Shown here: piece after piece, positions 38,314 to 52,620 of the stretch
How the letters are laid out: each line of letters starts with the position of its first letter
Position numbering within the stretch: position 1 is the first letter of the stretch
From: Planctomycetota bacterium
GTDB lineage: Bacteria > Planctomycetota > B15-G4 > SIAN01
Assembly (NCBI GenBank): GCA_009691715.1
Contig: SIAN01000016.1
Span: 389-64,388 of the forward strand
Direction of reading: 5' to 3'
Length of the DNA: 64,000 nt
Program-made: the position numbers and the translations under genes
The notes under the pieces: model-generated
What the model saw: the letters and a program-made list of their open reading frames with translations, nothing else
Databases searched by the model: none
What the model was told of the DNA's origin: nothing

Positions 38314-38466
38314 TCGCGCTGCTTCGGCGAGTCGTCGCGCTACCTCGACCAGCAGTCACGCCACTACAACGAGTCGCTGCCCCGGGCACGGACGGGTCCT
38401 GAGGCGTGCGCGAATTGACACCCGGAGGGAGGCCGGTAACGTCCCTAGGTTCCCCCGGACCCGAAA

Positions 38467-39237
38467 ATGCGCATCCCTGTCATTGCCGGCAATTGGAAGA
38501 TGAACCTCGATCGCACCGCGGCCGTCGCGTTGGCGCGCGCGGTCCTCGCCGCGTTGCCACCTGGCAGTGCCGAGGGCGTCGAAGTCGGGATCGCGCCACC
38601 CTACCCCTACCTCGAGGCGGTCCGCGGTGTGTTGCGTGGCAGTGCGATCTGGGTCGGCGGGCAGGATCTGTCCCCAGAGCCCTACGGCGCGTTCACTGGG
38701 GACGTGTCGGCGCCGATGTTGACCGACGTCGGCTGCAGCCACGTGATCGTCGGCCATTCAGAGCGGCGCCAGCGCGGGGAAAGCTCGGAGCTGGTCGGTC
38801 GGAAAGTCGCCGCGGCGATCGCGGCAAGACTCGCCCCAGTGCTTTGTGTCGGCGAGACCCTCGCGCAACGCGAAAGCGGCAAGACGGCCGCGGTCGTCCT
38901 CGAGCAGCTTGACTCAGGTCTACGCGGAATCACCGCCGGCGAAGGCGCGCACCTGCTCGTCGCCTACGAACCGGTCTGGGCGATCGGGACCGGACGCAAC
39001 GCGACGCCAGCGCAGGCGGGCGAAGTGCACGCGCTGCTGCGTGATCGCCTGGCGAAACTCTGGTCGCGGGCGGTCGCCGAATCCGTCCGCATCCTCTACG
39101 GTGGTTCGGTCAAGCCGGAGAACGCCGGTGAACTCCTCGCAGTCCCCGATATCGATGGTGCGCTGGTCGGCGGCGCCTCGCTTGTCGCTGGTTCGTTCCT
39201 GAAGATCATTGCCGCGTGCCCGCAACGGGCGCGCTGA
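38467..39237 (+). CDS. tpiA: Triosephosphate isomerase
   Basis: VIAGNWKMN, IVGHSERR, AYEPVWAIGTG, ILYGGSV. Confidence 0.95.
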   Translation: MRIPVIAGNWKMNLDRTAAVALARAVLAALPPGSAEGVEVGIAPPYPYLEAVRGVLRGSAIWVGGQDLSPEPYGAFTGDVSAPMLTDVGCSHVIVGHSERRQRGESSELVGRKVAAAIAARLAPVLCVGETLAQRESGKTAAVVLEQLDSGLRGITAGEGAHLLVAYEPVWAIGTGRNATPAQAGEVHALLRDRLAKLWSRAVAESVRILYGGSVKPENAGELLAVPDIDGALVGGASLVAGSFLKIIAACPQRAR

Positions 39238-39252
39238 CGAGGTAACTGCTCC

Positions 39253-39711
39253 ATGACGCTGTCGCTGCTCACTCTGGCCGGATTCTTCTACGGAGTCCTT
39301 TGGTTCCTGCTGATCCTCACCATGCTGCTGCTGATCGGCGTGATCCTGCTGCAGGAGGGCAAGGGCGGTGGCCTCGCCGAGGCGTTCGGCGGCGCGGGTG
39401 CCGAGACGTTCGGCGTGAAGGCGCACGGCATCAACAAGTTCACCGCGGTGGTGGGTGGCGTCTTCCTCGTCCTCTGCGTCGTGCTCACGAAGGTTCACCT
39501 CGAGCCGACTCAGGAGGAGCTCGTGCCTTCGTTCACGCCGGAGGCTGAGCGGCCCGATCCGAACGACCCGAGAGAGATCTTGAAGAACCTAGTCGTTCCG
39601 CCAGGCGGGGCTGGCGCAGGCGCGCCACCCGCGGGTGGTGCTGGCGTCGTGCCCCCACCGGGCGGCGGCGCCGCCAATCCAGCCCCTGGGCCGCAAGGCG
39701 ACGGCAAGTAA
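39253..39711 (+). CDS. secG: Preprotein translocase subunit SecG with Pro/Gly-rich C-terminal extension
   Basis: ..LLLIGVILLQEGKGGGLAEAFGG.. is the SecG signature. Second TM, then a tail of about 75 aa. Confidence 0.85.
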   Translation: MTLSLLTLAGFFYGVLWFLLILTMLLLIGVILLQEGKGGGLAEAFGGAGAETFGVKAHGINKFTAVVGGVFLVLCVVLTKVHLEPTQEELVPSFTPEAERPDPNDPREILKNLVVPPGGAGAGAPPAGGAGVVPPPGGGAANPAPGPQGDGK

Positions 39712-39742
39712 TCAGGGCGAAGGAAACTCGGGGAGCTGTCAC

Positions 39743-40357
39743 GTGGACGTCGCAGAAGTCCGTCGTTCGCTCGAAGAGACGCAAGCGCTGCTGAACGGCC
39801 ATTTCCTGCTGAGTTCGGGCAAGCACAGCGACAAGTACTTCCAATGCGCGCGAGTACTCGCATCACCGGCTCGCGCGTCGTTGCTCGGCGCCGGCATCGG
39901 CAGCCGCTTCACCGATCTGCCGGTCGACGCGGTGATCGGCCCGGCGATCGGCGGCATCGTGATCGCGCACGAGGTCGCCCGCTATCTCGGCACACCGAGT
40001 TACTACACCGAGCGCGAGAACGGGAACATGACGCTGCGCCGCGGTTTCACGCTGGAGCCTGGCAGCAAGGTGATCGTGGTCGAGGACGTCGTCACGACCG
40101 GCGGCTCGGCGAAGGAAGTGGTCGAGTTGTTCCAATCGATGGGTATCGAAGTGGTCGGCGTCGGCGCGATCGTCTGGCGTTCACCGGAGCCGAATGCGAG
40201 TTCGCCATTCGGCGCGCTGCCGTTCCGGCCGTTGCTGGTGATGCCGACCGAGGCGTGGGACGTGCCGAATTGCCCGCAATGCAAGCTTGGCAAGCCGTTC
40301 CATAAGCCGGGCAGCCGCACGCACGCCGCCGGCGCGGCAGCCGAAGCGGGGAAGTGA
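39743..40357 (+). CDS. pyrE: Orotate phosphoribosyltransferase
   Basis: GTG 39743 after GGGGAG. GHFLLSSGKHSDKYFQC. PRPP loop VIVVEDVVTTGGS. Track start 39635 overlaps secG and is rejected. Confidence 0.88.
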   Translation: MDVAEVRRSLEETQALLNGHFLLSSGKHSDKYFQCARVLASPARASLLGAGIGSRFTDLPVDAVIGPAIGGIVIAHEVARYLGTPSYYTERENGNMTLRRGFTLEPGSKVIVVEDVVTTGGSAKEVVELFQSMGIEVVGVGAIVWRSPEPNASSPFGALPFRPLLVMPTEAWDVPNCPQCKLGKPFHKPGSRTHAAGAAAEAGK

Positions 40358-40361
40358 GCCG

Positions 40362-41243
40362 ATGCCGGCGAGCATGACCGGCTTCGGCCGCGCGGGCAGT
40401 CGCGGGCGTGGCGCGCGGCTCCTCTGCGAGGTGCGATCGGTCAATCATCGGTTCCTGTCGACCAAGATTCGGCTGCCGAGCGCGCTCGGGCAACTCGAGA
40501 GCATGGTCGAGCAGCGCGTGAAAGAACGGCTGCAGCGCGGCTCGGTCGAAGTCGCGGTCTTCTGGCGCGATGCCGGCGCGCGCTTGGCCTCGACGCTGGT
40601 TCCGAAGGTCGCCGATCACTATTTGGCCGAAATCCGCGGGTACCTGAAGAAGAAGAAGCTGGCGCCCGACGTCAGCGCCGAACTCCTGCTCGGTCTACCA
40701 GGTGTGCTGGCTCCGGCCGACCCCGATGCCATCGCCGATGACTTCGCGAAGGAGTTGCGACAGGTCGTCGACAGCGCGCTCGATGCGTTGTGCGAGATGC
40801 GGACCCGCGAGGGCGATCGGCTCGCCGCCGCACTGCGGCGCGAAGCGAAGCAGGTGCACGCGTGCGCCGCGGTGATCCAGTCGGGTATCCCGGCGATGGT
40901 GCGCAATTACCAGCAGAAGCTCGGCGAACGCATCGCTGCGCTGCTCGACGGTCAGGGAGTCGCGCCCGATCCTGCGATCCTCGCGCGCGAGGTCGCGCTC
41001 TTCGCGGACAAGGCGGACGTGACCGAAGAACTCGATCGGCTGAAGAGCCACGAAAGCGAGTTCGAGAAGCTGCTGGCCAAGTCGGGGCCGATCGGCCGCG
41101 AACTCGAGTTCCTGGTGCAGGAGATGGGGCGCGAGGTGCAGACGGTGGGGAGCAAGGTGCAAGACACCGCGCTGCTCACCAAAGTGCGCGAAGCCAAGGC
41201 GAGCCTCGAGAAGCTGCGCGAACAGGTGGCGAACTTCGAATGA
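40362..41243 (+). CDS. yicC: YicC family stress-induced protein
   Basis: MTGFGRA., EVRSVNHRFL, DVTEELDRLKSH, GRELEFLVQEMGREVQTVGSK. Confidence 0.9.
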   Translation: MPASMTGFGRAGSRGRGARLLCEVRSVNHRFLSTKIRLPSALGQLESMVEQRVKERLQRGSVEVAVFWRDAGARLASTLVPKVADHYLAEIRGYLKKKKLAPDVSAELLLGLPGVLAPADPDAIADDFAKELRQVVDSALDALCEMRTREGDRLAAALRREAKQVHACAAVIQSGIPAMVRNYQQKLGERIAALLDGQGVAPDPAILAREVALFADKADVTEELDRLKSHESEFEKLLAKSGPIGRELEFLVQEMGREVQTVGSKVQDTALLTKVREAKASLEKLREQVANFE

Positions 41244-41836
41244 TCGACAGCCGCACCGCCGCCGGCCCACCGCCCGGCAGCACGCCCTTCCGTGGCGGTC
41301 TGGCGGTGTTGTCGGGTCCGTCGGGATCGGGCAAAACGTCGATCTGCAATGCGCTGCTGGAGGATCCGCGAGTCGAGCTGTCGATCAGTGCGACGACTCG
41401 GCCAGCACGGGGCGGGGAGCAGCACGGTCGCGAGTATTGGTTCTATTCGCGCGCCGAGTTCGACCGGATGGTCGCCGCCGGTGACTTCGTCGAATGGGCG
41501 CAGGTCTACGCCAATTGCTACGGCACTCCAAGGCGTCCGCTCGAAGAGGCTTCGCGTCGCACCGACCGGTTGATGGTCCTCGACATCGACGTGCAGGGGG
41601 CGGCGCAGCTGCGGAAGCAAGCGATCCGGCACGTCTCGATCTTCATCGCGCCACCGAGCATCGATGAGCTGAAGCGCCGGTTGGCGGCCCGTCGCACCGA
41701 CTCGCCCGAGGTGATCGCCGAGCGGCTCCGATGGGCGGAACAGGAACTGGCTCAGGCCGGCACCTACGACCACGTGATCGTCAACGTCGACCTCGCCGCC
41801 ACCATTGCCGCCGCCAAGGCGATCCTCGGCCTCTGA
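41240..41836 (+). CDS. gmk: Guanylate kinase
   Basis: ATGA overlap with yicC. LSGPSGSGKTS, SATTRP.R.GE..G.EY.F, EWA.VY.N.YGT. Confidence 0.92.
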   Translation: MIDSRTAAGPPPGSTPFRGGLAVLSGPSGSGKTSICNALLEDPRVELSISATTRPARGGEQHGREYWFYSRAEFDRMVAAGDFVEWAQVYANCYGTPRRPLEEASRRTDRLMVLDIDVQGAAQLRKQAIRHVSIFIAPPSIDELKRRLAARRTDSPEVIAERLRWAEQELAQAGTYDHVIVNVDLAATIAAAKAILGL

Positions 41837-42001
41837 TCGCCACGTGATCTGAATGGCCCGCGCGCTGCGCTCTGCGCGACGCTCGCGCTACTATCCCCCG
41901 CGGTTGGGCGGCCCTGGGAGGGGACGGTCGATCCTGCTCCAAGCGCCTCATTTCCTGTAGCGGGAAGGGGGCACCATGGCCGTTCGCTGCGAGTACCTTG
42001 C

Positions 42002-44953
42002 GTGGCGAGCGAGCGGACGAAAGAACTGTCGTCGTTAATTTGGTTCGGCGCGGGAGCATTCCTGCTGGCCGCCATGGCGTCCTATTCCGAAGACGTGCTT
42101 CCCCTCCTGGGGACAGAGCGCTGGCATAACGTCTGTGGTCCGGCGGGATTCGTGCTCGCGCGCGCGCTGCTCTCGCAACTGGGTTACGCGGCCTACCTGA
42201 TCCCGCTGGCCCTGATCGGTGAGGGGGCGCGGCTGTTCGCCCGACTGCCGTCGCGACCGCTGAAGGTCCGCGTGTTCGGAATCCTGCTGTTCATGCCGGT
42301 GTTGGCCGCGGCGCTGCACGATCTGCTCGGCGGCTACAGCACGCGCATCCCCGATCCGGGCGGCGAATTCGGCATCTGGCTCGCCGGACTGCTCAAGCAC
42401 GATGGCGGTCTCGGATCGGTCGGTGGTCGGATCGCGTTGACGATGTTGCTGCTGATCACCTTCGTCCTCTACGCCGACCTGCTCTATTCGCGCTCGGCAG
42501 CGTCGGTACTGAACTGGCTCGGAGAGCGTGGAGGAGTGCTCGCGTTCGTCCGCGGCGGAGCGCCAGTCGGAGGCGCGACCATGCTCGCGGGAGCTTCGGC
42601 AGCGGGAGCCGCGCTCGCGCCGGCCAGAAGTTGGTGGCGGCGAGGCGACGTGGCGCTCGACGCGAAGAATGACGTCGCGCCGAACGATGCCGACGATCCG
42701 TTCGAAGGCGTGGATTCGATCGAGAGCACAGCGGAGCTCCAGAGCACAGCGGATATCGAGAGCAACGAAGAACTCGACGCGGAGCTCGATCGCGCGCTCG
42801 CGCAGCCGTCGAGAGGTGCGAGGAAGCAGAAGAAGAAGAACTCGAAGCGATTGTTGTCCGCTGTCGACGCGGCGATGGAGAGCGACGCCGTCGAAGTCGA
42901 GTACCCGGTCGCCGAGCCGATCGACGAGGAGTTGCTCGAACGGCGCCCGCCAACGCCGGCCGAACGCGAGGTCGCAGCGCGCGCTTCCGCACTGGTCGAG
43001 GCGAAGGCGAAGGCTGAGGCCGACGCGCAGGCGGCGACCGCGAAGGCGATCCGCGATGCGGTCGCGAAGAGTGGTGCGCCGGCGACGAAAGCTGCGACGG
43101 CGGCGCGAGTCGCCGTCGAAACGACCCACCACGGAACGTCCGACACCGAGCTCCTCGAGGAACTCGAAGCCGATCGCGACGTCGACGCGAAGTCCGAAGT
43201 TTCGACGTTCGCTGCGATCCGGCCGAGTGCGCCTGCTCGCAAGAGCCCGCCGCCGATGACGCACGCGATCCTGCAGACGCCGGAAGCCCCGGAGCAGGAG
43301 CCGAGCCGTCCCTACGTCTTTCCTTCGTTCCAACTGCTCGATCCGCCCGAACGCGACAGCGGCGGCGACTTCCTCAAGTTCACCGAAGAGGCGGCACGCA
43401 AACTCACCACGGCGCTCCGTTCGTTCAAGGTCGAGGCGCGCGTGGTCGGCGTGCAGCGCGGGCCCTCGATCACGATGCTCGAAGTCGAGCTCGCGCCCGG
43501 CACCAAGCTGACGCGACTGCGCGCGCTCGAGGACGATCTCGCGATGGCGCTCGCCGCCCAGAGCGTGCGCATCGTCGCGCCGATCCCCAACAAGTCGACC
43601 GCCGGGATCGAGATCCCCAACGACGCGCGCGCCGTCGTGCGCATGTCGGAGTTGCTGCAGTGGCCGGGCTTCAACCCGCAGAAGTACGCCATCCCGATTT
43701 GCCTCGGCAAGGACTCGAGCGGCGCGCCGCGCATCGAGGACCTCGCCAAGATGCCGCATCTGCTCGTCGCCGGCTCGACCGGCTCGGGAAAGTCGGTCTG
43801 CCTCAACACGTTGATCATGTCGATCCTGTTCACGCGCACGCCGGACCAGGTGAAGCTGATCCTGATCGACCCGAAGATGGTCGAGCTGTCGTCGTTCCAG
43901 AACGTGCCGCACCTCATGTGCCCGGTCGTGACCGACATGAAGCGCGCGGCCGGGATCCTCGAATGGGCGTGCGAGAAGATGGAGGAGCGCTACGCGCTGC
44001 TGCACAAGGTGGGCGTGCGCAACATCTACGCCTACAACAAGCTCGGCGAAGACGAGGTCAAGCTGCGCCTCGGCGACGAGCTCTCCCAAGATTTCGAGAC
44101 GACGCTGCCGTTCATCGTGATCGTCATGGACGAACTCGCCGACCTGATGCTGCAGCACGGCAAGGACGTCGAGCAGTTCATCACGCGCCTGGCGCAGAAG
44201 TCGCGGGCGGTCGGCATTCACGTGATCTTGGCGACGCAACGTCCGTCGACCAACGTGATCACCGGCTTGATCAAGGCCAACCTGCCGACGCGCATCGCAT
44301 TCCGCGTGACCAGCAAGATCGACTCGCGCGTCATCCTCGATCACAACGGCGCCGACAAGCTGCTCGGCCAGGGCGACATGCTCTATATCCCGCCCGGCAG
44401 CGCCGATCTTTCGCGCGTGCAGGGCTGTTTCGTGACCGACCAGGAGATTCGCGTCGTCGTCGACTACCTAGCGCAGCAGGGGCCGCCGAAGTACTCGCGC
44501 GAATTGGTGCAGAAGCGCAACTCGTCGGACAAGGATCCCGGCGAGATCGACGACCTGTTCGACGAGGCGGCGAAGTTCGTTGTGGAGACGCAGCGCGGCT
44601 CGGCGTCGCTGCTGCAGCGCCGCTTCGCGATCGGCTACACCCGCGCGTCGCGGCTGATCGACCTGATGGCGAACGACGGGCTGCTCGGCGAATTCAAGGG
44701 CAGCCAGGCGCGCGAGGTCGTGTGCACGAGTCTCGAAGAGCTCGAGCAACGACGTGCCGAACAGCGCAAGGCGCGCGGCGCCAAGCTGACGGCATCCGTG
44801 GATGCTCGAAGTGGCGACTCTTCCGGCAGCGAATCCGCGGTCGGCGTGGCGGACGCCGACCCCGGAATGTCTGAGGCCGACGGCGACGAAAAGAACGGCG
44901 ACAAAAAGAACGGCGACGAAAAGAACGGCGACGAGCAGGAGGGGAAGGCATGA
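42002..44953 (+). CDS. ftsK: DNA translocase FtsK (4TM + linker + motor + gamma domain)
   Basis: GTG start. N-terminal TMs. VAGSTGSGKSVCLN Walker A, VIVMDELADLM. Gamma domain LLQRRFAIGYTRASRLIDLMANDGLL. NGDEK repeats at the C-terminus. Confidence 0.93.
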   Translation: MASERTKELSSLIWFGAGAFLLAAMASYSEDVLPLLGTERWHNVCGPAGFVLARALLSQLGYAAYLIPLALIGEGARLFARLPSRPLKVRVFGILLFMPVLAAALHDLLGGYSTRIPDPGGEFGIWLAGLLKHDGGLGSVGGRIALTMLLLITFVLYADLLYSRSAASVLNWLGERGGVLAFVRGGAPVGGATMLAGASAAGAALAPARSWWRRGDVALDAKNDVAPNDADDPFEGVDSIESTAELQSTADIESNEELDAELDRALAQPSRGARKQKKKNSKRLLSAVDAAMESDAVEVEYPVAEPIDEELLERRPPTPAEREVAARASALVEAKAKAEADAQAATAKAIRDAVAKSGAPATKAATAARVAVETTHHGTSDTELLEELEADRDVDAKSEVSTFAAIRPSAPARKSPPPMTHAILQTPEAPEQEPSRPYVFPSFQLLDPPERDSGGDFLKFTEEAARKLTTALRSFKVEARVVGVQRGPSITMLEVELAPGTKLTRLRALEDDLAMALAAQSVRIVAPIPNKSTAGIEIPNDARAVVRMSELLQWPGFNPQKYAIPICLGKDSSGAPRIEDLAKMPHLLVAGSTGSGKSVCLNTLIMSILFTRTPDQVKLILIDPKMVELSSFQNVPHLMCPVVTDMKRAAGILEWACEKMEERYALLHKVGVRNIYAYNKLGEDEVKLRLGDELSQDFETTLPFIVIVMDELADLMLQHGKDVEQFITRLAQKSRAVGIHVILATQRPSTNVITGLIKANLPTRIAFRVTSKIDSRVILDHNGADKLLGQGDMLYIPPGSADLSRVQGCFVTDQEIRVVVDYLAQQGPPKYSRELVQKRNSSDKDPGEIDDLFDEAAKFVVETQRGSASLLQRRFAIGYTRASRLIDLMANDGLLGEFKGSQAREVVCTSLEELEQRRAEQRKARGAKLTASVDARSGDSSGSESAVGVADADPGMSEADGDEKNGDKKNGDEKNGDEQEGKA
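44882..44935 (+). repeat. 15-nt in-frame tandem repeat (ggcgacgaaaagaac, about 3.5 copies) at the ftsK 3' end
   Basis: Read directly. Confidence 0.9.
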
Positions 44954-46950
44954 CCCTGGGTATTGCGACGACGGCGGGATTCCTCGGCGGCTGGACCACC
45001 GGCTGCATCGTGCTGCTGATCGGAGTCTGGCTTTTCCTGGCGCTGCTCGGCATCCGGAACGGCCGCTTCCCGTGGCGCGTGGTCGGAGGCGGGACGTTCA
45101 TCGTCGGCTCGGCGCTGTGGCTCGGGATGCATCCGGCGCATGCGAGCGCGTGGGAGGTAGACGCCGGCTATCTCGGCTTCGCCGCGGAGTCGTCTCTGCT
45201 GCAGCCCGGCGGGTCGCAGGTGGCGCAGAACCTGCTGGCGGCGTTGCTGGCCGCGTGCTCGGTGCTCGGTCTGTTGGTCGCGATCGATTGGCTGCCGCTG
45301 ATGCCGTTTGCGCCGCTGCTCGGCCACGTCGAAGCGCGGCTCGTGCGCGCCGCAGACGCGCGAGCCGCAGCTCGTGCCGCAGCGGCCGCAGCCGCTCGCC
45401 AGCAGGCGTTGGCAACGGCGATCAGGCCGGGGTCCACCGCCGCCACCATGGTTCTGCACTCGACGGCGACGATCGATTCGCCGACGCTGCAGGCCACACC
45501 CGCTGCGCCGCCGCTGTCGCTGGCCGACGCTGCCGCGGTCGTGTCAGCCGGGGTCGCGATCGCGAACGTTGAACTCGACGCCGTGTCGTCCGCAGAGGTC
45601 GCCGACGCCATCGAGACGGAGAATCTGGAGCCGCGACCGACCGTCACCAGTCTTTGGGATCGCTTCAAGCCGCGCGCTTCGGTTTCGCCGGAGGCGCCCC
45701 CGGACGAGAACGCGGTGGACAACGAGGCCGGGGCGACGGATAACTCCTCGCTTGAATTGGGCGTAAGCCGCGCTGAGGCGGCGCCCTTGACGGATGCTCC
45801 GACCAACTTGGCGATCAAGTCGACCACGGAGCCGCAGGCGCAGATCGAGGCGTCAACGCCTGCGGCGGACCCAGAACAAAAGGACTCTCCTGTGCCCGAT
45901 CACGATCTTGAAGACGAAGTGACGATGCCTTCTGACGCGGAATCCGCGGTGGCGACGATCGATGGAGTTCCGTCGCCGATCGCTGATCGCGACATCGCTG
46001 ATCTTGACAGTGCAGCCGCGAGCGTTGCAGTCCCCGACGTGGCGGTCGGCGAGACGATCGCGCCGCGCCGCAAGAAGAAAGACGACGAGCCCGCCGAGTC
46101 GCCTCCTGAGGAGGAGCCGGGCGAGGGCGACGACAAAGAGGGCGACGACAAAGAGGGCGACGACAAAGAGGGCGACGACAAAGAGGGCGACGACGAGCTC
46201 GAGGAGGATGAGGAAGAGTGGGAGGAAGACGACGACGAAAAGAAGAAGGAGGGCGACGAAGAGAAGGAGGAAGACGAGGACGAGGAGTGGGACGACGACG
46301 AGGAGACGGACGAGCCTGACGACGACGAGTCGGGAGGTGAGGAGGATGACGCGAAGGAAGGGGACGACGCGGACGACGCGGAGGAGGACGACGAGGAGGC
46401 GGACGACGGCGACGACCAGAGTTCGTCGACGGATCCCGTGCCGCAGTCGATCGCCGCTGTTTCCTCTTCGATCGAAGTGGCGCCGTTGATTGAAGTCGCG
46501 CCATCGATCGAAGGCGCGCCGGCTGAGTCGGTCACTGCCGATGTTCCTTCGACGGCGTCCGCACCGATCGTCGAAGTCGTTGCGATCGACACTTCCAGCA
46601 TCGAATTGCCGCTGACCGACGCGCCGGTGATCGAGGTTGCTGCGCCGGTGGCGCGTGCGCCGGTCGCGCCCACGCAGGCGCCGATCTCCCGCCCGCCGCT
46701 CCCGCCGACGCTCTTCGCCGAGCTCCCCGCCGACGAGCGCGAACTCCTCGGCCGCGCGACTGAGCTGCTCCTGCGACTCGAAAGCGTGTCGTTGTCTAAG
46801 CTGCAGCGCGAGCTCGCGATCACCTACTACTCGGCTGCCCGCGTCTTCGAACGGCTGGAGAAGGAAGGCTTCGTGGCGCCTTACACCGGAAGTCTTGCGC
46901 GGCTGGTCAGGATCACACGGACCGAATGGGATGCGCGCCTGCGGGCGTGA
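44950..46950 (+). CDS. Motor-less FtsK-like membrane protein: N-terminal TM segments, very acidic disordered linker, C-terminal FtsK-gamma-like winged helix
   Basis: ATGA overlap with ftsK. 3-4 hydrophobic segments. EGDDK x4.8 and long D/E runs. C-terminus SLSKLQRELAITYYSAARVFERLEKEGFVAPYTGSLARLV aligns to the gamma motif S.LQR...IGY.RA.R....E..G.V. Confidence 0.85.
   Translation: MTLGIATTAGFLGGWTTGCIVLLIGVWLFLALLGIRNGRFPWRVVGGGTFIVGSALWLGMHPAHASAWEVDAGYLGFAAESSLLQPGGSQVAQNLLAALLAACSVLGLLVAIDWLPLMPFAPLLGHVEARLVRAADARAAARAAAAAAARQQALATAIRPGSTAATMVLHSTATIDSPTLQATPAAPPLSLADAAAVVSAGVAIANVELDAVSSAEVADAIETENLEPRPTVTSLWDRFKPRASVSPEAPPDENAVDNEAGATDNSSLELGVSRAEAAPLTDAPTNLAIKSTTEPQAQIEASTPAADPEQKDSPVPDHDLEDEVTMPSDAESAVATIDGVPSPIADRDIADLDSAAASVAVPDVAVGETIAPRRKKKDDEPAESPPEEEPGEGDDKEGDDKEGDDKEGDDKEGDDELEEDEEEWEEDDDEKKKEGDEEKEEDEDEEWDDDEETDEPDDDESGGEEDDAKEGDDADDAEEDDEEADDGDDQSSSTDPVPQSIAAVSSSIEVAPLIEVAPSIEGAPAESVTADVPSTASAPIVEVVAIDTSSIELPLTDAPVIEVAAPVARAPVAPTQAPISRPPLPPTLFAELPADERELLGRATELLLRLESVSLSKLQRELAITYYSAARVFERLEKEGFVAPYTGSLARLVRITRTEWDARLRA
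46126..46197 (+). repeat. 15-nt in-frame perfect tandem repeat (ggcgacgacaaagag, about 4.8 copies; GDDKE)
   Basis: Read directly. Confidence 0.95.
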
Positions 46951-46974
46951 GCCCGCTGGCACACACCGCTCGCT

Positions 46975-47577
46975 GTGACGCTCGCCAACAAGATCACGAC
47001 CGGGCGACTCGCGCTTGCCGTGGTGCTGTTTGTCCTGTTCGACCTGCTCGGGCGCGAGCCGCTGCCAGGCTGGCCGCTCGCGGCGGTCTGCTGCGCCTTG
47101 TTCGTCCTAGTGACGGCCACCGACGCGCTCGACGGCTACTACGCCCGCAAACTCGGACAAGTGAGCGACTTCGGCCGCATCGCCGACCCCGCCGCCGACA
47201 AGGTGATCATCTGCGGCAGCTTCGTCTTCCTGTCGGCGGTGAGCTGGGGTCGCGAGATCGTCCCGCCCTGGATCGTGGTCACGATCCTCTGCCGCGAATT
47301 CATCGTCACGGCGTTGCGCGGATACATGGAACGCAAGGGGCATGACTTCGGCGCCGATCCGGCGGGCAAGATGAAGATGATGATCCAGTGCATCGCGGTG
47401 CCGTCGGTGCTTTGCTACCGGATCGCGCAGGACGGACTCTCTGACCAGTGGCCGTCGTTGCCGATGGCGATTCGTTGGGTTGCGATCGTGCTGGTGTGGG
47501 CGACGCTGCTGGTGACGGTGTGGAGCGGCCTGCGTTATGTCCGCAAGGCGGCCATCCACTTGAGGGAGGGGTTGTGA
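46975..47577 (+). CDS. pgsA: CDP-diacylglycerol--glycerol-3-phosphate 3-phosphatidyltransferase
   Basis: GTG start. DALDGYYARKLGQVSDFGRIADPAADK is the CDP-alcohol transferase motif. Confidence 0.88.
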   Translation: MTLANKITTGRLALAVVLFVLFDLLGREPLPGWPLAAVCCALFVLVTATDALDGYYARKLGQVSDFGRIADPAADKVIICGSFVFLSAVSWGREIVPPWIVVTILCREFIVTALRGYMERKGHDFGADPAGKMKMMIQCIAVPSVLCYRIAQDGLSDQWPSLPMAIRWVAIVLVWATLLVTVWSGLRYVRKAAIHLREGL

Positions 47578-48116
47578 CGCAACGAGGTCCCGCGCCGCAA
47601 GGTGTCGGCCGCAAGCCGCCAACCGCGCTCGACCGCGTGAAGGCGGCGATCGTGTCGAGTTGCGGGCTTGGCTACGCGCCGGTGGCGTCAGGGACGTTCG
47701 GCACGCTCGGAGGCGTCGCGGTCGCGCTGTTCTTGGCGCATGTCGCCGTGCCGCAATGGGGCTGGCACTTCGGCCTGGCCGCCGCCGTCGCGGCCGCGAT
47801 CTGCCTGGTCGTCGGGATCGCGCTCGGCGGTTGGGCAGAGCGCTACTACGGCTTCAAAGACCCCAAGCCGTTCGTGCTCGACGAGGTCCTCGGTTACCTG
47901 GTTGCGGTGCTTCGTCTGAAGGGAGGAGTTCCCGGCGCGAACGAGTTGATCCTCGCGTTCTTCGCCTTCCGCCTGTTCGACGTCCTCAAACCGCCGCCGG
48001 CGCGCCGGCTCGAATTCCTGCCGAAGGGCGTCGGCATCATGCTCGACGACCTGGTCGCCGGGCTCTATGCGCTCGCGCTGGTGGTCGTGGTGCGCGACTC
48101 GAACGTGTGGCAGTGA
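47574..48116 (+). CDS. pgpA: Phosphatidylglycerophosphatase A
   Basis: GTGA overlap with pgsA. GLGYAPVASGTFGTLGGV..., FVLDEVLGY, FRLFDVLKP. Confidence 0.85.
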   Translation: MTQRGPAPQGVGRKPPTALDRVKAAIVSSCGLGYAPVASGTFGTLGGVAVALFLAHVAVPQWGWHFGLAAAVAAAICLVVGIALGGWAERYYGFKDPKPFVLDEVLGYLVAVLRLKGGVPGANELILAFFAFRLFDVLKPPPARRLEFLPKGVGIMLDDLVAGLYALALVVVVRDSNVWQ

Positions 48117-48207
48117 GGAGGCTGATCGCGTCGAGTGTGCCGGCTCTGCCAACCGTTCGAACCGTGCCGACCGTCCGCGAAGATCGTGCGCAGAGGGAGA
48201 GGCACCG

Positions 48208-49902
48208 ATGAAGCCGGCGAGCAAACGTAAGCCTGTCGCTCGCGCCGTCGGCGAAGAGTCGTCGATCGACCTCAAGGCGGTCCGCCGCGCGCGTTCCTCG
48301 GGACTCGGTGTCGCCGCCCAGTTTTCGCTGGCGATGTCTGGCACGATCGCGGTGTCGTTGCTGGTGTTCGGACTGATCCTCTATCGGAACCTTGCCGGGA
48401 GCCTCTCCGCCGAGATCGACGCGACCGGCGTGCAGGCGGTCCGCGCGCTGGCAGTGGTCGACGCCAACTGTTGGGAGCCGTTCCACGAGACGGCGCTCGA
48501 GGGACGTGGCGTGGAGGAGCGCTCCGAGCGTGGCCTACCGCCGGTGCACATGGAGAAGGAGCCGAAAGCGCAGTTCGAGCGCCGCGAGCCGCAAAATCGC
48601 GAGCGGCTGCGGCGGCTGATCGAAGCGATTGGCACCAAACTGCTCGACGTCGCGATCCTCGATCCGACGATGAAGCAGGTGATCCTCGGTGATGCGCTTT
48701 CGTTCGAACTGGAGGCGACGCGGGACTTCGCCGAGGTCTCGATCCAGGAGGGCGTCTACAACGCCAACGCCGGCACCGTGCGACAGAAGCGGACAAAGGC
48801 GCGCGTTTACGCCGCCGACGTGCGTGACGAGATCGGCCGGATTTCTGCGCGCGCCGTCGTCGCGCTTTCCGCGGAGAAGATCGAGGAGACCCTGCACGGC
48901 GTCCTCGTCAACATGCTGCTGCAGGTGCTGCTGTTTCTCGGCGGCGGCGTTCTGATCTCCTGGCTGCTCTCGCAGCGCATCACGCGGCCGATCAAACAGC
49001 TGGCAGCGGACATCGACACGGTCGCCGGCGGGCGCCTCGAACATCGCACGCATTCGCACAGCAACGATGAGATTGGCGTGCTGGCGCGCAACTTCGATCG
49101 CATGACCCAGAATCTGTTCGCGCTCCAGGGAGTGCTCCGCCAGCAGGCGGCGGCGGAGCACCAGATCGAGGTCGTGCGCGAGGTGCAGGCGGCGCTGCTG
49201 CCGGAGAAGCTCCCGGCGGTCGCTGGTTTCGAATGCCACGCGGCTGCGCGGCCGGCGGCGAAGGTCGCCGGCGATTTCTACGACGTCTCCGAGATGGGGG
49301 GCGGCGCCAAGCTCGCCGCGGTGGTCTCAGCCTCCGGCAGCGGCGTCGCGGGCGCGATGGTCGTGACCATGGCGCGATCGCTGCTGAAGGCGCTGGCCGG
49401 GGCGGAGTCGTCGCCGGCTGAGTTGTTGCGGCGCGTCAACCGGCTGCTCGCGCCTGACTTGCGGCGCGGCATGTACGTCTCCGCGCTGCTGGTGCGGATC
49501 GAGCCGGCGACTGGGCGAATCGTGGTCGCGAATGCCGGGCACACGCCACTCCTGCTCTGCCGCGCGGGCGCCGGCGCGGCGGAACCGTTCCACAGCGACG
49601 GCATCGCGCTGGGATTCGACAAGGGCCCGATCTTCGATCGCACGATCAAGGACAAAGAGCTCGATCTGTCGGCCGGCGCGCGCCTGTTGCTCTGCACCCG
49701 GGCGCTCTTCGCGATCAAGAACGTCGATGGTCGCGAGCTTGGCGAGGAATCGGCGCATCGGCTGTTCGCGCGGGAGGCAGGCAAGAGCGGCGAGACTTTC
49801 GTCGAAGCGACGCTCGCAGCGATCGAGGCGTATCGCGCCGGCGCCGAGGTGGTCGACGACGTGACCTTCCTCACGCTCCGTCGCGTCGGTGGCTCGAAGT
49901 GA
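48208..49902 (+). CDS. Membrane HAMP-domain PP2C/SpoIIE-type serine phosphatase
   Basis: ATG 48208. TM. HAMP (RITRPIKQLAADIDTVAGGRLEHR..NDEIGVLARNFDRM). VAGDFYDV...SGSGVAGAM is a SpoIIE signature. Confidence 0.85.
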   Translation: MKPASKRKPVARAVGEESSIDLKAVRRARSSGLGVAAQFSLAMSGTIAVSLLVFGLILYRNLAGSLSAEIDATGVQAVRALAVVDANCWEPFHETALEGRGVEERSERGLPPVHMEKEPKAQFERREPQNRERLRRLIEAIGTKLLDVAILDPTMKQVILGDALSFELEATRDFAEVSIQEGVYNANAGTVRQKRTKARVYAADVRDEIGRISARAVVALSAEKIEETLHGVLVNMLLQVLLFLGGGVLISWLLSQRITRPIKQLAADIDTVAGGRLEHRTHSHSNDEIGVLARNFDRMTQNLFALQGVLRQQAAAEHQIEVVREVQAALLPEKLPAVAGFECHAAARPAAKVAGDFYDVSEMGGGAKLAAVVSASGSGVAGAMVVTMARSLLKALAGAESSPAELLRRVNRLLAPDLRRGMYVSALLVRIEPATGRIVVANAGHTPLLLCRAGAGAAEPFHSDGIALGFDKGPIFDRTIKDKELDLSAGARLLLCTRALFAIKNVDGRELGEESAHRLFAREAGKSGETFVEATLAAIEAYRAGAEVVDDVTFLTLRRVGGSK

Positions 49903-50231
49903 CGCTCGCCGAATTCCAGCGCCTCATCGATGCGATTTACGGCGCGAAGGACCGCGGCCGCGGGCTCGAAGGCACGTTCATGTGGTTCACCGAGGAAGTG
50001 GGCGAGTTGTCACGGGCGCTGCGCCGCGGCAAGCAGGGGCCGCCGCTCGAGGAGGAGTTCGCCGACGTGCTGGCATGGCTTGCCACGCTTGCGAGCATCG
50101 CCGGCGTCGACCTCGAGGCAGCGGCGCGCGCCAAGTACGCCACCGGCTGTCCGCGCTGCGCTTCCATCCCGTGCCGGTGCGCCGAGCCGCTGCGACCGAC
50201 GGCACCTGCGACGCCCTCGATCGGGTGCTGA
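49899..50231 (+). CDS. Small MazG-like all-alpha NTP pyrophosphohydrolase with Cys-rich C-terminal tail
   Basis: GTGA overlap with the upstream gene. ..EEVGELSRAL....EEEFADVLAWL.. is a MazG-type EExxE/D motif. Tail CPRCASIPCRC. Confidence 0.75.
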   Translation: MTLAEFQRLIDAIYGAKDRGRGLEGTFMWFTEEVGELSRALRRGKQGPPLEEEFADVLAWLATLASIAGVDLEAAARAKYATGCPRCASIPCRCAEPLRPTAPATPSIGC

Positions 50232-50316
50232 CAGCGAGGCCCTGCGTCGGCCGTCACCGGGGCGGATGGCTAGCGTCTCGCATCGCGCGGCGGAATCTCC
50301 GCCGAGGCGCAGGGCC

Positions 50317-52587
50317 ATGAACCAACTCTTCCCAGAATCAGAATCCCCAACTGCGAGCGCACCGTGCCTCTTCGCGCGCGTGGCGGTCGCGCTGCCGGTC
50401 GATCGCTCGTTTCACTACCGCATCCCAGTGGCGCTCGCCGACAGCGTGGTTGTCGGCTCGCGCGTGCGCGTCCGCGTCTCCGGTCGGCCCGTGTGTGGCA
50501 CCGTGCTCGCGCTCGACCGCGTCGCCGATGTGGCGCGCGTGCTCGATGTCGAAGGCGTCTTCGGCGCAGAGGCGCGCGTCGCTCCGGAGGTGATCGACCT
50601 CTGCCGGTTCGTCGCCGACCGCTACGGCGCATCGCTCGGGGAGACGCTCGAAAGCGCGTTGCCGCCGCCCGTGCGCCACGGTCGCGGCATTCGCCAGGTT
50701 GTGGTCGTGCAGCTCGCCGCGCCGTTCGCCGATCCGAAGCGGGCCAGACTCGAAGCCGACGTGCTGCTGGCGAAGCACGAAAAGCAGGCGCGGCTGCTGC
50801 GGCTGCTGGCGGAGGCCGGCGGAGGCGTGAGGGAGATCGACCTGCTGCGACGGGCGCAGGTCGGCAAATCGCCGCTCGAGAGTCTGGAACGGCGTGGACT
50901 CGTCGCCCGCACGCGCGTCGATGATCCAGGAGACCCGGCGTTTCTCGCGTCGCCCTCTGCCCGTATCCCGCCGCCGCTGCCGACGTCCGAGCAGGTGGCG
51001 GCAGTGAGCGCCGTCGAGTTGGCGCTCGAATCGCGCGAGCATCGCGGCTTCCTGCTGTTCGGCATCACTGGCAGCGGCAAGACCGAGGTCTACCTGCGCT
51101 CGCTCGAAGAGGCGTTGAAGCGTGGCCGCCGCGGCATTGTCCTCGTGCCAGAGATCTCCCTTACCCCGCAGACGGTGGCGCGCTTCCGCGGGCGATTCGA
51201 TCGCGTTGCCGTACTCCACTCGGCGCTGGCGGAGCGCGACCGCCTGCGCGAATGGCGGCGCATCGCGTCAGGCGCCGTCGACGTCGTGGTCGGCGCACGA
51301 TCCGCGATCTTCGCGCCGCTGCCCGACTTAGGGCTAGTCGTCGTCGACGAAGAGCACGAGCCGAGCTTCAAGCAGCAGAACCCGCCGCGGTACCACGCGC
51401 GCGAGGTGGCACTCGAGCGGGCGCGCCGGGCGGGCGCCGTCGTCGTGCTCGGCTCGGCGACCCCGAGCCTCGAGTCGTGGGCCGCCGCAAGTGCTGGCAG
51501 GCTCACGCTGCTGCGACTGCGCGAACGGGTCGGCGGTGGCGCGCTTCCGGAGACGCAGGTCCTCGACTTGTCGCACATGCCCTTCACCAAGCACGCGAGC
51601 ATGCTCACCGACCGGTTGCGCGCCGCGCTCGAAGAGGTGCTGCGCCGTGGCGAGCAGGCGATTCTGTTCCTGAATCGACGCGGCTTCGCGCGCCTGTCGC
51701 TCTGCCCGGGCTGCAAGGAGGCGGTGCAGTGCCCTGATTGCGACGTCGCGTTGGTCTTCCATCAGCGCGCGGAGCGGTTGATCTGCCACCTTTGCGGTCG
51801 TGAGCAGGCGCCCGACGCGCGTTGCGCGAAGTGCGGCAAGCCCGGCATGCGCTTCCTCGGCTTCGGGACCGAGCGGGTCGAACAGGAACTGCGCCGCAAC
51901 TTTCCGCGCGCCCGCGTGGCACGCATGGACAGCGACACCACGGCGGCGCAGGGCTCCCATGAGCGGATCCTTGGCGCTTTCGGGCGCGGCGAGTCCGACT
52001 TCCTGGTTGGGACCCAGATGATCGCCAAAGGACTCGACTTCCCGCGGGTCACGCTGGTGGGGATCGTCTCGGCCGACACTTCGCTGTCGGTGCCCGATTG
52101 GCGCGCCAGCGAGCGGACGTTTCAGCTGGTCGCGCAGGTCGCCGGTCGCGCCGGTCGATCCGCGCGTGGCGGCCGGGTGATCGTGCAGACTCTCCACCCG
52201 CAGCATCCGGCGATCACCTGCGCGGTTCGACATGACTACGAGGCGTTCGTCGCCGCCGAATTGCCGCTGCGCGCCGAGGCGAACTATCCGCCGTTCACCC
52301 AGATCGTCCGCATCCTGGTGTCGCACGCCGATGTCGATCGCACGCGCGGGGCCGCCGAGAAGGCGAAGGCGAAGCTCGCGCCCATGGCCGGTGAGTTCGG
52401 CGTGGAGCTGCTGGGGCCGGCGCCGTGCCCGATCGAGCGGGTGCGCGGCCGCTGGCGCTGGCAACTCCTCCTCAAGTGCCGTGAAGTGAAGGAGCTGACG
52501 CGCGTGGTGGCATGGGCGCGCGAGCGGGTGGCGCAGAGTGCACCGGTTCGCGTGACGCTCGACGTGGATCCCGGCTCGATGCTTTGA
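50317..52587 (+). CDS. priA: Primosomal protein N' (replication restart helicase PriA)
   Basis: ATG 50317. GITGSGKTEVY, VVDEEHE. Cys-rich zinc region CPGC..CPDC...C.LCG...C.KCG. Track start 49930 rejected. Confidence 0.93.
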   Translation: MNQLFPESESPTASAPCLFARVAVALPVDRSFHYRIPVALADSVVVGSRVRVRVSGRPVCGTVLALDRVADVARVLDVEGVFGAEARVAPEVIDLCRFVADRYGASLGETLESALPPPVRHGRGIRQVVVVQLAAPFADPKRARLEADVLLAKHEKQARLLRLLAEAGGGVREIDLLRRAQVGKSPLESLERRGLVARTRVDDPGDPAFLASPSARIPPPLPTSEQVAAVSAVELALESREHRGFLLFGITGSGKTEVYLRSLEEALKRGRRGIVLVPEISLTPQTVARFRGRFDRVAVLHSALAERDRLREWRRIASGAVDVVVGARSAIFAPLPDLGLVVVDEEHEPSFKQQNPPRYHAREVALERARRAGAVVVLGSATPSLESWAAASAGRLTLLRLRERVGGGALPETQVLDLSHMPFTKHASMLTDRLRAALEEVLRRGEQAILFLNRRGFARLSLCPGCKEAVQCPDCDVALVFHQRAERLICHLCGREQAPDARCAKCGKPGMRFLGFGTERVEQELRRNFPRARVARMDSDTTAAQGSHERILGAFGRGESDFLVGTQMIAKGLDFPRVTLVGIVSADTSLSVPDWRASERTFQLVAQVAGRAGRSARGGRVIVQTLHPQHPAITCAVRHDYEAFVAAELPLRAEANYPPFTQIVRILVSHADVDRTRGAAEKAKAKLAPMAGEFGVELLGPAPCPIERVRGRWRWQLLLKCREVKELTRVVAWARERVAQSAPVRVTLDVDPGSML

Positions 52588-52620
52588 GGCGCGCTACCGC
52601 GTGGAGCTGTCGCGCGGCGC

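Follow-up and report, generated by a model that had tools for sequence, protein, structure and literature searches.

What does a bacterium do with a second FtsK-type protein that has no motor and is encoded directly behind ftsK itself? The question is raised by a locus in a stretch of 64,000 nucleotides (called the window here, meaning the whole stretch of DNA analysed) from an uncultured Planctomycetota bacterium whose source genome is a 65-contig MAG. The N-domain of FtsK carries targeting and the gamma domain carries regulation. The second gene is, on the sequence evidence set out below, a genuine and selectively maintained copy of FtsK from which the alpha/beta DNA pump is missing and in which both ends are kept, and its product is probably a so far undescribed FtsK partner in organisms whose division does not involve FtsZ.

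ftsK and the gene behind it

The genes concerned and their junction are as follows.

42002 to 44953, plus strand: ftsK, a complete DNA translocase of 983 aa with 4TM, linker, alpha, beta motor, gamma and a short acidic tail of NGDEK repeats
44937 to 44953, plus strand: junction of predicted translational coupling, read directly (AGGAGG at 44937–44942, a 7-nt spacer, ATGA at 44950–44953)
44950 to 46950, plus strand: motor-less ftsK paralogue of 666 aa, from the list of open reading frames, with full-length homologues in protein databases
46975 to 47577, plus strand: pgsA, CDP-alcohol phosphatidyltransferase (Pfam PF01066, 114 bits), 24 nt downstream of the paralogue

The upstream protein is the bona fide FtsK that the original prediction took it to be, since Pfam recognizes FtsK_4TM (56.5 bits), FtsK_alpha (96.7 bits), FtsK_SpoIIIE (206 bits) and FtsK_gamma (79.2 bits) and the NCBIfam FtsK model scores 454 bits; a 15-nt repeat of 3.7 copies lies at the 3' end of its gene (44880–44934). 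The overlap of the downstream start with the ftsK stop, also part of that prediction, was found as described: the ATG (44950–44952) and the TGA (44951–44953) share the 4 nt ATGA, with the AGGAGG ahead. The identical overlap is present in L001, L003–L005, L007 and L046 (ftsK end at 6004, paralogue start at 6001), which together with the window are all the family-f1 loci with coordinates read, and M1 of the paralogue is invariant throughout this family; families other than f1 show short gaps between the two genes. The next gene of the co-directional cluster is pgsA, an order kept in relatives. Terminator-like sites in the gap between the paralogue and pgsA did not exceed background, and the promoter and terminator scan gave no signal above background.

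The paralogue has eighteen full-length homologues in protein databases (P0016, P0018 and P0019 among them). Pfam searches of its 666 aa at E<=1 returned no match to FtsK_SpoIIIE, AAA or alpha (PF17854), so that the RecA-type beta motor with its Walker A/B motifs (PF01580), which gives 206 bits in the neighbouring FtsK, is absent at this threshold, and an NCBIfam search gave no match either. Additionally, phmmer with the local FtsK motor over 23 loci matched the upstream genes only. The lack of a Walker A/B motor claimed beforehand is thus upheld, and a protein without the alpha and beta (RecA-type) motor domains should be unable to translocate DNA. Pairwise BLASTP of the paralogue N-terminus or gamma against their counterparts in the neighbouring FtsK produced zero alignments whereas profile comparisons are positive, which means that the homology between the two proteins is visible to profiles only.

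Domain organization of the paralogue

The protein is composed of a membrane domain and a winged helix joined by a long disordered linker, within which several short motifs and an acidic core can be delimited.

44950 to 45324, plus strand: membrane domain, aa 1–125, divergent FtsK_4TM (hhalign, Pfam in relatives, AF2)
45310 to 45423, plus strand: Ala/Arg-rich juxtamembrane helix, aa 121–158 (AF2 helix 121–158, pLDDT up to 83)
45427 to 46719, plus strand: disordered polyanionic linker, aa 160–590, about 430 aa (AF2 pLDDT <50 throughout; composition)
45649 to 45675, plus strand: linker motif SLWDRFKPR (family consensus TNWARFRPR; VPWYARRR in f2 relatives)
45715 to 45774, plus strand: linker motif VDN..(H)NSS..G.SRA, with D257, N265 and G271 invariant
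45877 to 45900, plus strand: linker motif KD.PV.D, with D312 invariant and P314, V315 and D317 near-invariant
46051 to 46077, plus strand: basic motif ETIAPRRKK at the entrance of the acidic core, with E368, P372, R374, K375 and K376 invariant
46078 to 46464, plus strand: acidic core, aa 377–505 (composition; TRF)
46720 to 46947, plus strand: winged helix of FtsK-gamma type, aa 591–666 (Pfam PF09397, PDB profile matches, AF2, Foldseek)

The N-terminal hydrophobic segments that had been noticed in the translation are located by Kyte-Doolittle analysis at aa 8–38 and 90–124, and AF2 places helices at 2–32, 40–60 and 90–111 (pLDDT 63–75). These three predicted TM helices correspond to TM2–TM4 of FtsK, the profile alignment spanning TM2–TM4 only, and the periplasmic D-x-G-x-x-G loop and a DWLPL motif are kept. 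The FtsK_4TM search proposed with the original prediction had a divided outcome: the window protein by itself, like the N-termini of its close family, has no Pfam FtsK_4TM match, but the relation emerges from the family profile (A8 against the FtsK N-termini A4 by hhalign, probability 95.2%, E 2.9e-8) and from Pfam FtsK_4TM (PF13491) matches in 5 of 13 family N-termini (best E 6.4e-9). The narrow family profile also matched the 4TM of one bona fide FtsK. These profile comparisons identify the N-terminal domain as a diverged FtsK_4TM, a result that is new here and that makes the gene a true motor-less ftsK paralogue, on firmer ground than the original prediction could offer. Mean pairwise identity of the membrane domain is 61% among 11 homologues. 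Since only three TM helices are predicted in the clade and not four, co-assembly with the 4TM of FtsK is not assured. The Arg-rich segment that follows and the positive-inside rule suggest that the C-terminal part of the protein is cytoplasmic.

The linker, expected to exceed 350 aa and to have an extremely acidic EGDDK core, indeed runs to about 430 aa with a net charge of -101. Its core contains 77 D/E in 129 residues (60%, net -67), and the EGDDK units are encoded by a perfect 15-nt repeat of 4.8 copies at 46123–46194 (TRF: 100% matches, score 144); positions 46000–46499 have a GC skew of +0.28 and an AT skew of +0.53. The linker is less conserved than the terminal domains (35–49% identity among 11 homologues). 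Its acidity is general, linkers being net-negative in 20/20 cases and more negative than the linker of the neighbouring FtsK in all 20 pairs. In the SLWDRFKPR motif, W236, R238, F239, P241 and R242 are invariant in alignments A1 and A5, and a motif of this type is present in the L036, L037 and L040 proteins.

The C-terminal domain is the FtsK gamma winged helix that had been claimed: Pfam FtsK_gamma (PF09397) matches aa 595–655 with a score of 46.2 bits (E 3.7e-12; gathering threshold 30.6), and a six-frame genome search gives the paralogue 51.2 bits for FtsK_gamma. A profile of the domain finds 2j5o, 2ve8 and 2j5p in the PDB (E about 1e-6). The structure prediction called for as a check agrees, with an AF2 pLDDT of 94.2 and the topology H-b-H-H-b-H, and Foldseek places the model at 1.2–1.4 Å from solved FtsK gamma structures (2j5p, rmsd 1.4 Å, E 8.6e-4; 2ve8_A, 1.2 Å; 2ve9_A, 1.3 Å; TM (target) 0.74–0.84), including KOPS-bound gamma, on which it superposes at 1.3 Å. 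An extra C-terminal helix beyond the winged helix bears an invariant W660. With 74% mean pairwise identity among 11 homologues, this domain is more strongly conserved than any other part of the protein.

Distribution and ancestry

A provisional Planctomycetota family of motor-less FtsK paralogues was defined by a 4TM-like N-terminus, an acidic linker, a C-terminal gamma, the lack of a motor and a position directly 3' of ftsK on the same strand, and the window gene has all of these. The conservation beside ftsK that synteny and phyletic distribution were to reveal was found: the paralogue is present in 26/26 genomes across four families of the class, and it lies immediately 3' of ftsK and co-directional with it in 25 of the 26, which are those with both genes on one contig. 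Ten other Planctomycetota families gave the same picture (10/10 sampled loci have the paralogue directly 3' of ftsK, and none has a motor). In a fifth family of the class the paralogue is absent from 16/16 genomes. A narrow profile (A2) had delimited a genus-restricted family, which proved an artefact of fast N-terminal divergence and was corrected by the wider profiles A7, A8 and A9; in genus g10, N-terminal matches (L042, L044, L045) belong to a different protein, and the true paralogue was recovered by the C-terminal profile.

In a tree of gamma domains, those of the FtsK proteins all group together with support (95/92) and every paralogue falls outside this clade, so that no paralogue is a recent copy of the neighbouring ftsK; the paralogue gamma evolves several times faster than that of FtsK. 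These trees fit a single ancient duplication, after which the paralogue was inherited together with ftsK. They also bear on a further explanation of the gene, as a functionless tandem copy of ftsK in decay or a misannotated frame in GC-rich DNA. Long spurious open reading frames are numerous in GC-rich genomes, the paralogue is split by a frameshift in one genome (G415, locus L038) and one family of the class does without the gene. However, internal stops are absent in 25/26 class genomes, the intact three-part frame recurs in those 25 and in ten other families, both end domains are clearly constrained, and the exclusion of every paralogue from the FtsK gamma clade, the confident AF2 fold, the Shine-Dalgarno sequence and the start/stop overlap all contradict such an origin, which is hardly credible.

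Surface of the gamma-like domain and possible roles

In FtsK gamma, KOPS is recognized by N1296, R1300, E1303 and E1306 (PMC2533119, PMC2680272), and XerD is contacted by Q1288, R1289, R1292, I1293, G1294 and N1296 (PMC5052618). The paralogue keeps three of the four KOPS positions (Y627, R631, E634, E637), with N1296 replaced by an aromatic residue that is invariant in this clade, whereas the local FtsK has T, R, D and A. At the XerD positions, Q619 (Q1288), R620 (R1289) and I624 are kept and R1292, G1294 and N1296 are replaced by A, T and Y respectively; within the class, the position of R1292 is A or G in paralogues. The wing arginine R651 (R1320) is also kept; R1297 has gone, and LRLESV stands in place of the TEKRKA loop. 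XerC-like and XerD-like genes are both found in this genome. In E. coli, R1289 pairs with E183/E184 of XerD; two prolines occupy these positions in the local XerD-like protein. The R1289–E184 salt bridge of E. coli does not carry over to the local XerD, and the E. coli interface is not simply transferable.

From the identity and conservation described above, we infer localisation, partners and effect as follows. The paralogue would be produced from the same message as FtsK, with translational coupling in family f1, and its 4TM-like domain would take it to the membrane sites of FtsK assembly, possibly in mixed oligomers. The gamma-like domain, on its long and strongly negative leash, would be the working end, and the leash would probably keep it off bulk DNA or auto-inhibit it until the domain encounters a specific partner. 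The surface that is kept (Q1288/R1289, R1300, E1303, E1306 and the wing R1320) is the face that E. coli gamma presents to KOPS DNA and XerD, and for this reason the paralogue is likely to bind the Xer recombinase, DNA or both at the division site, and to do so without translocation. It would then act as a motor-independent accessory or regulator of chromosome dimer resolution by FtsK and of terminus handling. This membrane-tethered accessory or regulator of FtsK/Xer is the account that we prefer, although it falls somewhat short of probable. All 16 genomes of one related family are without the gene, which counts against an Xer/FtsK accessory role.

The same residues could also describe a sequence-specific DNA tether, with its own oriented or terminus-proximal motif unlike that of the neighbouring FtsK, that anchors DNA at the membrane or division site and so captures the terminus independently of Xer. 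In the class, position 1300 stays basic and 1303 acidic or polar, E1306 and the wing R1320 are kept, and 1296 is consistently aromatic where every local FtsK has Thr, which amounts to a coherent code for a different specificity; in addition, the fold fits KOPS-bound gamma and its domain leads the protein in conservation. In other planctomycete families, however, the recognition helix is highly variable or degenerate and R1300 is often missing, being lost in several families, which argues against a single conserved DNA motif family-wide, and a DNA-binding domain with a polyanionic leash beside it would be hindered in contacting DNA. Such a tether is rather unlikely.

The degenerate recognition helix of many families would suit a division scaffold, in which the paralogue, after duplication, has taken over or shares the division role that the N-domain and linker of FtsK play in E. 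coli, its membrane domain and linker motifs serve to bring in envelope or division proteins where FtsZ is missing, and the gamma fold is reused for protein binding. The conserved D-x-G-x-x-G periplasmic loop, common to FtsK 4TM, and the short linear motifs of the linker are in line with it. On the other hand, gamma exceeds every other part in conservation within the clade and keeps residues of DNA and XerD type, the linker motifs are restricted to the clade, and the neighbouring FtsK retains a complete 4TM domain of its own; as a whole, this explanation appears improbable.

A motor-independent FtsK/Xer accessory has precedents. Isolated gamma and XerC/D-gamma fusions have been studied by Grainge et al. 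(2011; PMC3130261) and Keller et al. (2016; PMC5052618). Isolated gamma switches on XerCD-dif recombination without the motor, and free gamma in E. coli leads to topologically complex Xer products (PMC3130261). Like these constructs, in which a motor-uncoupled gamma is enough for XerD catalysis in E. coli, the paralogue keeps the critical pair Q1288/R1289; unlike them, it is a natural gene product, known from sequence and predicted to be membrane-anchored, and the E183/E184 partners are missing in the local XerD-like protein. Because of its complex products, uncoupled gamma is not neutral, and this invites the idea of a decoy or negative regulator that competes with FtsK gamma for XerD/KOPS, or enters FtsK rings by way of its membrane domain and dilutes their active motors, and so throttles translocation or recombination. 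The predicted coupling of its production to FtsK and the 4TM-type and gamma-type domains common to both proteins speak for it, but a pure inhibitor at a fixed ratio to its target would be an odd design, the long-term conservation of four linker motifs suggests further partners, and most of the positions that face a partner differ between the gammas of the paralogue and of the local FtsK. We regard a decoy as distinctly unlikely.

The TLC-phi satellite phage encodes XafT, an Xer activation factor that is likewise motor-less and activates XerD independently of FtsK translocation (PMC6744903); the analogy with the paralogue is functional only, this phage protein having an unrelated, soluble fold. 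With FtsK itself (of E. coli, P. aeruginosa and the upstream ftsK) the paralogue shares FtsK_4TM homology, a long low-complexity linker, a gamma winged helix with Q1288/R1289, R1300, E1303, E1306 and the wing Arg, and in the case of the upstream ftsK the operon. It differs by having no motor, three predicted TM helices in the clade against four, a polyanionic linker, Tyr for N1296, the loss of R1292 and R1297, an unconserved TEKRKA loop and a faster evolution of gamma. In Firmicutes, SftA and SpoIIIE provide a second FtsK-family protein per genome, as paralogues dividing labour. Paralogues of that type keep the ATPase motor, SftA without a membrane domain, whereas the planctomycete paralogue keeps the opposite parts. 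No description of a motor-less FtsK paralogue was found in literature searches, in agreement with the supposition of the original prediction that no equivalent had been described.

To our knowledge, motor-uncoupled gamma has been studied so far in engineered E. coli constructs only, and the paralogue amounts to a natural experiment on gamma freed from its motor. It consists of exactly the targeting and regulatory parts of FtsK, and in much of the phylum its gene is firmly linked to ftsK. Among the dcw genes of Planctopirus limnophila, which has no FtsZ, ftsK alone is essential, and FtsK nucleates the divisome in the FtsZ-less Chlamydia (PMC12283558). The paralogue is a concrete candidate for a missing component that couples chromosome segregation to division. 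It is conceivable, if a long shot, that FtsZ-less Planctomycetota duplicated the gamma module onto its own membrane anchor as a natural switch that needs no motor, so that a polyanionic line at the division site captures Xer or terminus DNA and gives it to FtsK or withholds it, with the acidic tract as a DNA mimic gating the winged helix. If true, this would represent a new control layer on chromosome dimer resolution and possibly a phylum-specific component of the division site.

Architecture of the paralogue

The start codon of the motor-less paralogue overlaps the ftsK stop codon: read in the window sequence, its ATG and the ftsK TGA share the ATGA overlap that the original prediction had described. 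All other features of that prediction were likewise found at the coordinates it gave.

Features of the ftsK/paralogue region in the window
42002–44953, +, complete ftsK (Pfam FtsK_4TM, FtsK_alpha, FtsK_SpoIIIE, FtsK_gamma)
44937–44942, +, AGGAGG ahead of the paralogue ATG
44950–46950, +, motor-less paralogue, 666 aa (ORF list)
46123–46194, +, perfect tandem repeat (15 nt x 4.8) encoding EGDDK in the acidic core

Hydrophobic N-terminal segments were found where they had been predicted, with three predicted TM helices in the paralogue of the window's clade. BLASTP of this N-terminus against the neighbouring FtsK gave no match, nor did Pfam on the N-termini of close homologues. A narrow family profile matched a genuine FtsK of a different planctomycete family in its 4TM region, a wider one matched FtsK N-termini of the lineage (hhalign probability 95.2%, E 2.9e-8), and Pfam FtsK_4TM directly matched 5/13 family N-termini (best E 6.4e-9). 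The hhalign alignment spans FtsK TM2–TM4, with a common periplasmic D-x-G-G-x-x-G loop and a D-W/L-L motif past the last helix. By the positive-inside rule, Arg-rich loops suggest that the linker and gamma domain are cytoplasmic. At loci L042, L044 and L045 of the genus g10, a weak N-terminal profile match was an unrelated hydrophobic ORF of ~284 aa elsewhere in the genomes; the true paralogue there adjoins ftsK and was located via its C-terminus, the N-terminus being too diverged to score.

The C-terminus is an FtsK gamma winged helix, as had been proposed. Residues 595–655 score 46.2 bits with Pfam FtsK_gamma (cut-off 30.6), and the best PDB sequence matches of the C-terminal profile are the solved FtsK gammas 2j5o, 2ve8/2ve9 and 2j5p (E about 1e-6). 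AlphaFold2 models the final 83 residues (pLDDT 94.2) in a helix-strand-helix-helix-wing order plus one extra C-terminal helix, and the model superposes at 1.2–1.4 Å on the E. coli and P. aeruginosa gamma domains, including the KOPS-bound form. The winged helix in the chromatin-binding region of eukaryotic meiotic HORMA proteins is about as good a match to this domain as FtsK gamma is (Hop1, PDB 9mug/9myp; sequence E 0.003, Foldseek E 2.3e-4).

Pfam detected no motor, alpha or AAA domain in the paralogue, in agreement with the predicted lack of a motor, and no NCBIfam model for it was found. With 4TM homology at one end and gamma at the other, the paralogue is thus FtsK minus the alpha/beta pump.

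Between these domains, residues 160–590 are predicted to be disordered with a net charge of -101, and composition and tandem-repeat analysis bore out the extremely acidic, EGDDK-repeated core (129 residues, 60% Asp/Glu). In 20/20 paralogues examined the linker is net-negative, and in every case it is more negative than that of the neighbouring FtsK. Homologue alignment revealed four invariant short motifs, W-x-R-F-R-P-R (P-W-Y-A-R-R-R in a sister family), D-N...N-S-S..G-x-S-R, K-D-x-P-V-x-D and E-T-x-A-P-R-R-K-K. The FtsK of the window itself carries a post-gamma tail of NGDEK units (15 nt x 3.7, 44880–44934, at the ftsK 3' end), and FtsKs of Planctomycetia relatives (L013, L015) terminate in long poly-Glu/Asp stretches; it therefore seems habitual in this phylum to place acidic tracts beside gamma domains, in FtsK and paralogue alike.

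Conservation beside ftsK

The source genome is a MAG (85% complete, 65 contigs). At each locus of the window's own family (f1) with coordinates read, the genes run tpiA-secG-pyrE-yicC-gmk-ftsK-paralogue-pgsA-pgpA-HAMP/PP2C-MazG-priA, and the 4-nt overlap recurs. This long co-directional string (window ~38000–52600) is family-wide, including L001, L003, L005 and L007; no terminator-like breaks were seen around ftsK, and it ties together genes for DNA segregation, for phospholipid synthesis and for replication restart.

The GTDB class was covered by 42 species genomes in one order. The C-terminal profile gave two gamma matches in 26/26 genomes of the four paralogue-carrying families (f1, f2, f104, f105): a strong one (69–124 bits) in an open frame of about 310–760 aa, the paralogue, and a weaker one, FtsK. 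In 25/26 the paralogue lies downstream of ftsK on one contig and the same strand, the matches 1.3–2.3 kb apart. Family f3 of this class showed the FtsK gamma match only (16/16 genomes), and the genes after ftsK there are unrelated ones. In one f3 genome (G389, L064), a 160-aa ORF without a Pfam match (3544–4026) begins 14 nt past ftsK; it may be a remnant or a small gene of other origin.

Among 301 sampled Planctomycetota genomes, 276 had any gamma match and 58 of these at least two; some families were positive throughout (f7 7/7, f57 8/8, f36 5/5, f72 4/4, f35 3/3), and several large, well-assembled ones had a single match. All ten loci inspected in ten other families carry a motor-bearing ftsK followed immediately by a same-strand ORF of 499–936 aa with a C-terminal gamma and no motor; the FtsK 4TM profile also matches five of these ORFs. 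Synteny holds in relatives from four families of the class and beyond, as the prediction required. The identity, architecture and conservation of the paralogue are established, as is its genetic coupling to ftsK.

Protein collections of 5.8 and 1.8 billion entries yielded a small family of 18 full-length members, all with the same three-part architecture and, where named by sources, only 'hypothetical protein'. Identity among 11 close homologues is 61% in the membrane domain, 74% in the gamma domain and 35–49% in linker segments. The paralogue is a real gene under selection, and its reading as a pseudogene or artefact is contradicted. At L038 (G415:C82), in the only f105 genome, it occupies two overlapping frames (6001–6561, N-terminal half; 6212–7645, C-terminal half), either a frameshift from assembly error or recent pseudogenisation.

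In a maximum-likelihood gamma tree, 22/22 planctomycete FtsK gammas form one clade (95/92) with all paralogues outside; the 12 paralogues of the window's class form another (96/96), which branches in the same pattern as the adjacent ftsK genes. Branches are several-fold longer among the paralogues, which may share a single origin, and deep branches are unresolved because the tree rests on 74 columns only. The simplest reading would be a single old duplication accompanied by loss of the motor, after which the copy was inherited together with ftsK, evolved faster and disappeared in some lineages.

The DNA/XerD face and possible function

KOPS recognition by E. coli FtsK gamma has been assigned to N1296, R1300 and E1303 (PMC2533119) and to R1300, E1303 and E1306 (PMC2680272). 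XerD is contacted by Q1288, R1289, R1292, I1293, G1294 and N1296, with R1289 critical and peptide 1289–1297 enough for activation (PMC5052618); the two surfaces overlap, and the TEKRKA loop too is linked to XerD (PMC2965235). These positions were mapped by HMM alignments.

Gamma-domain positions (E. coli; paralogue; neighbouring FtsK)
Q1288/R1289; Q619/R620; Q/R
R1292; A623; A
I1293; I624; I
G1294; T625; G
N1296; Y627; T
R1297; S628; R
R1300; R631; R
E1303; E634; D
E1306; E637; A
wing R1320; R651; R
TEKRKA loop; LRLESV; ETQRGS

The neighbouring FtsK residues are near-identical throughout the order. Class paralogues retain the core charged residues of this face with a consistent, different code (aromatic at 1296, Glu at 1306). 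In other families the paralogue recognition helix is highly variable and R1300 often absent, helix 2 L-Q-R/K being nearly universal. A XerD-like and a XerC-like recombinase, one of each, are encoded in the source genome, the former with Pro-Pro where E. coli XerD has E183/E184, so the E. coli salt bridge cannot be assumed.

Within the library searched, no paper on a motor-less FtsK paralogue was found, in keeping with the earlier statement that no equivalent was known; the protein is a new domain-architecture variant inside the very well-known FtsK family. In E. coli, gamma on its own activates XerCD-dif (PMC3130261), and in FtsZ-less PVC bacteria FtsK plays a central part (PMC12283558), on which grounds a role as FtsK partner is tentatively put forward, at somewhat less than even odds. 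Less probable rivals are a sequence-specific DNA tether, a decoy or throttle, and a division scaffold reusing the gamma fold. On the leading reading the paralogue would reside with FtsK in the membrane, hold out a winged helix of gamma type on its long, polyanionic leash and bind Xer recombinase and/or DNA without translocation, and may thereby act as an accessory or regulator in FtsK-dependent chromosome processing.
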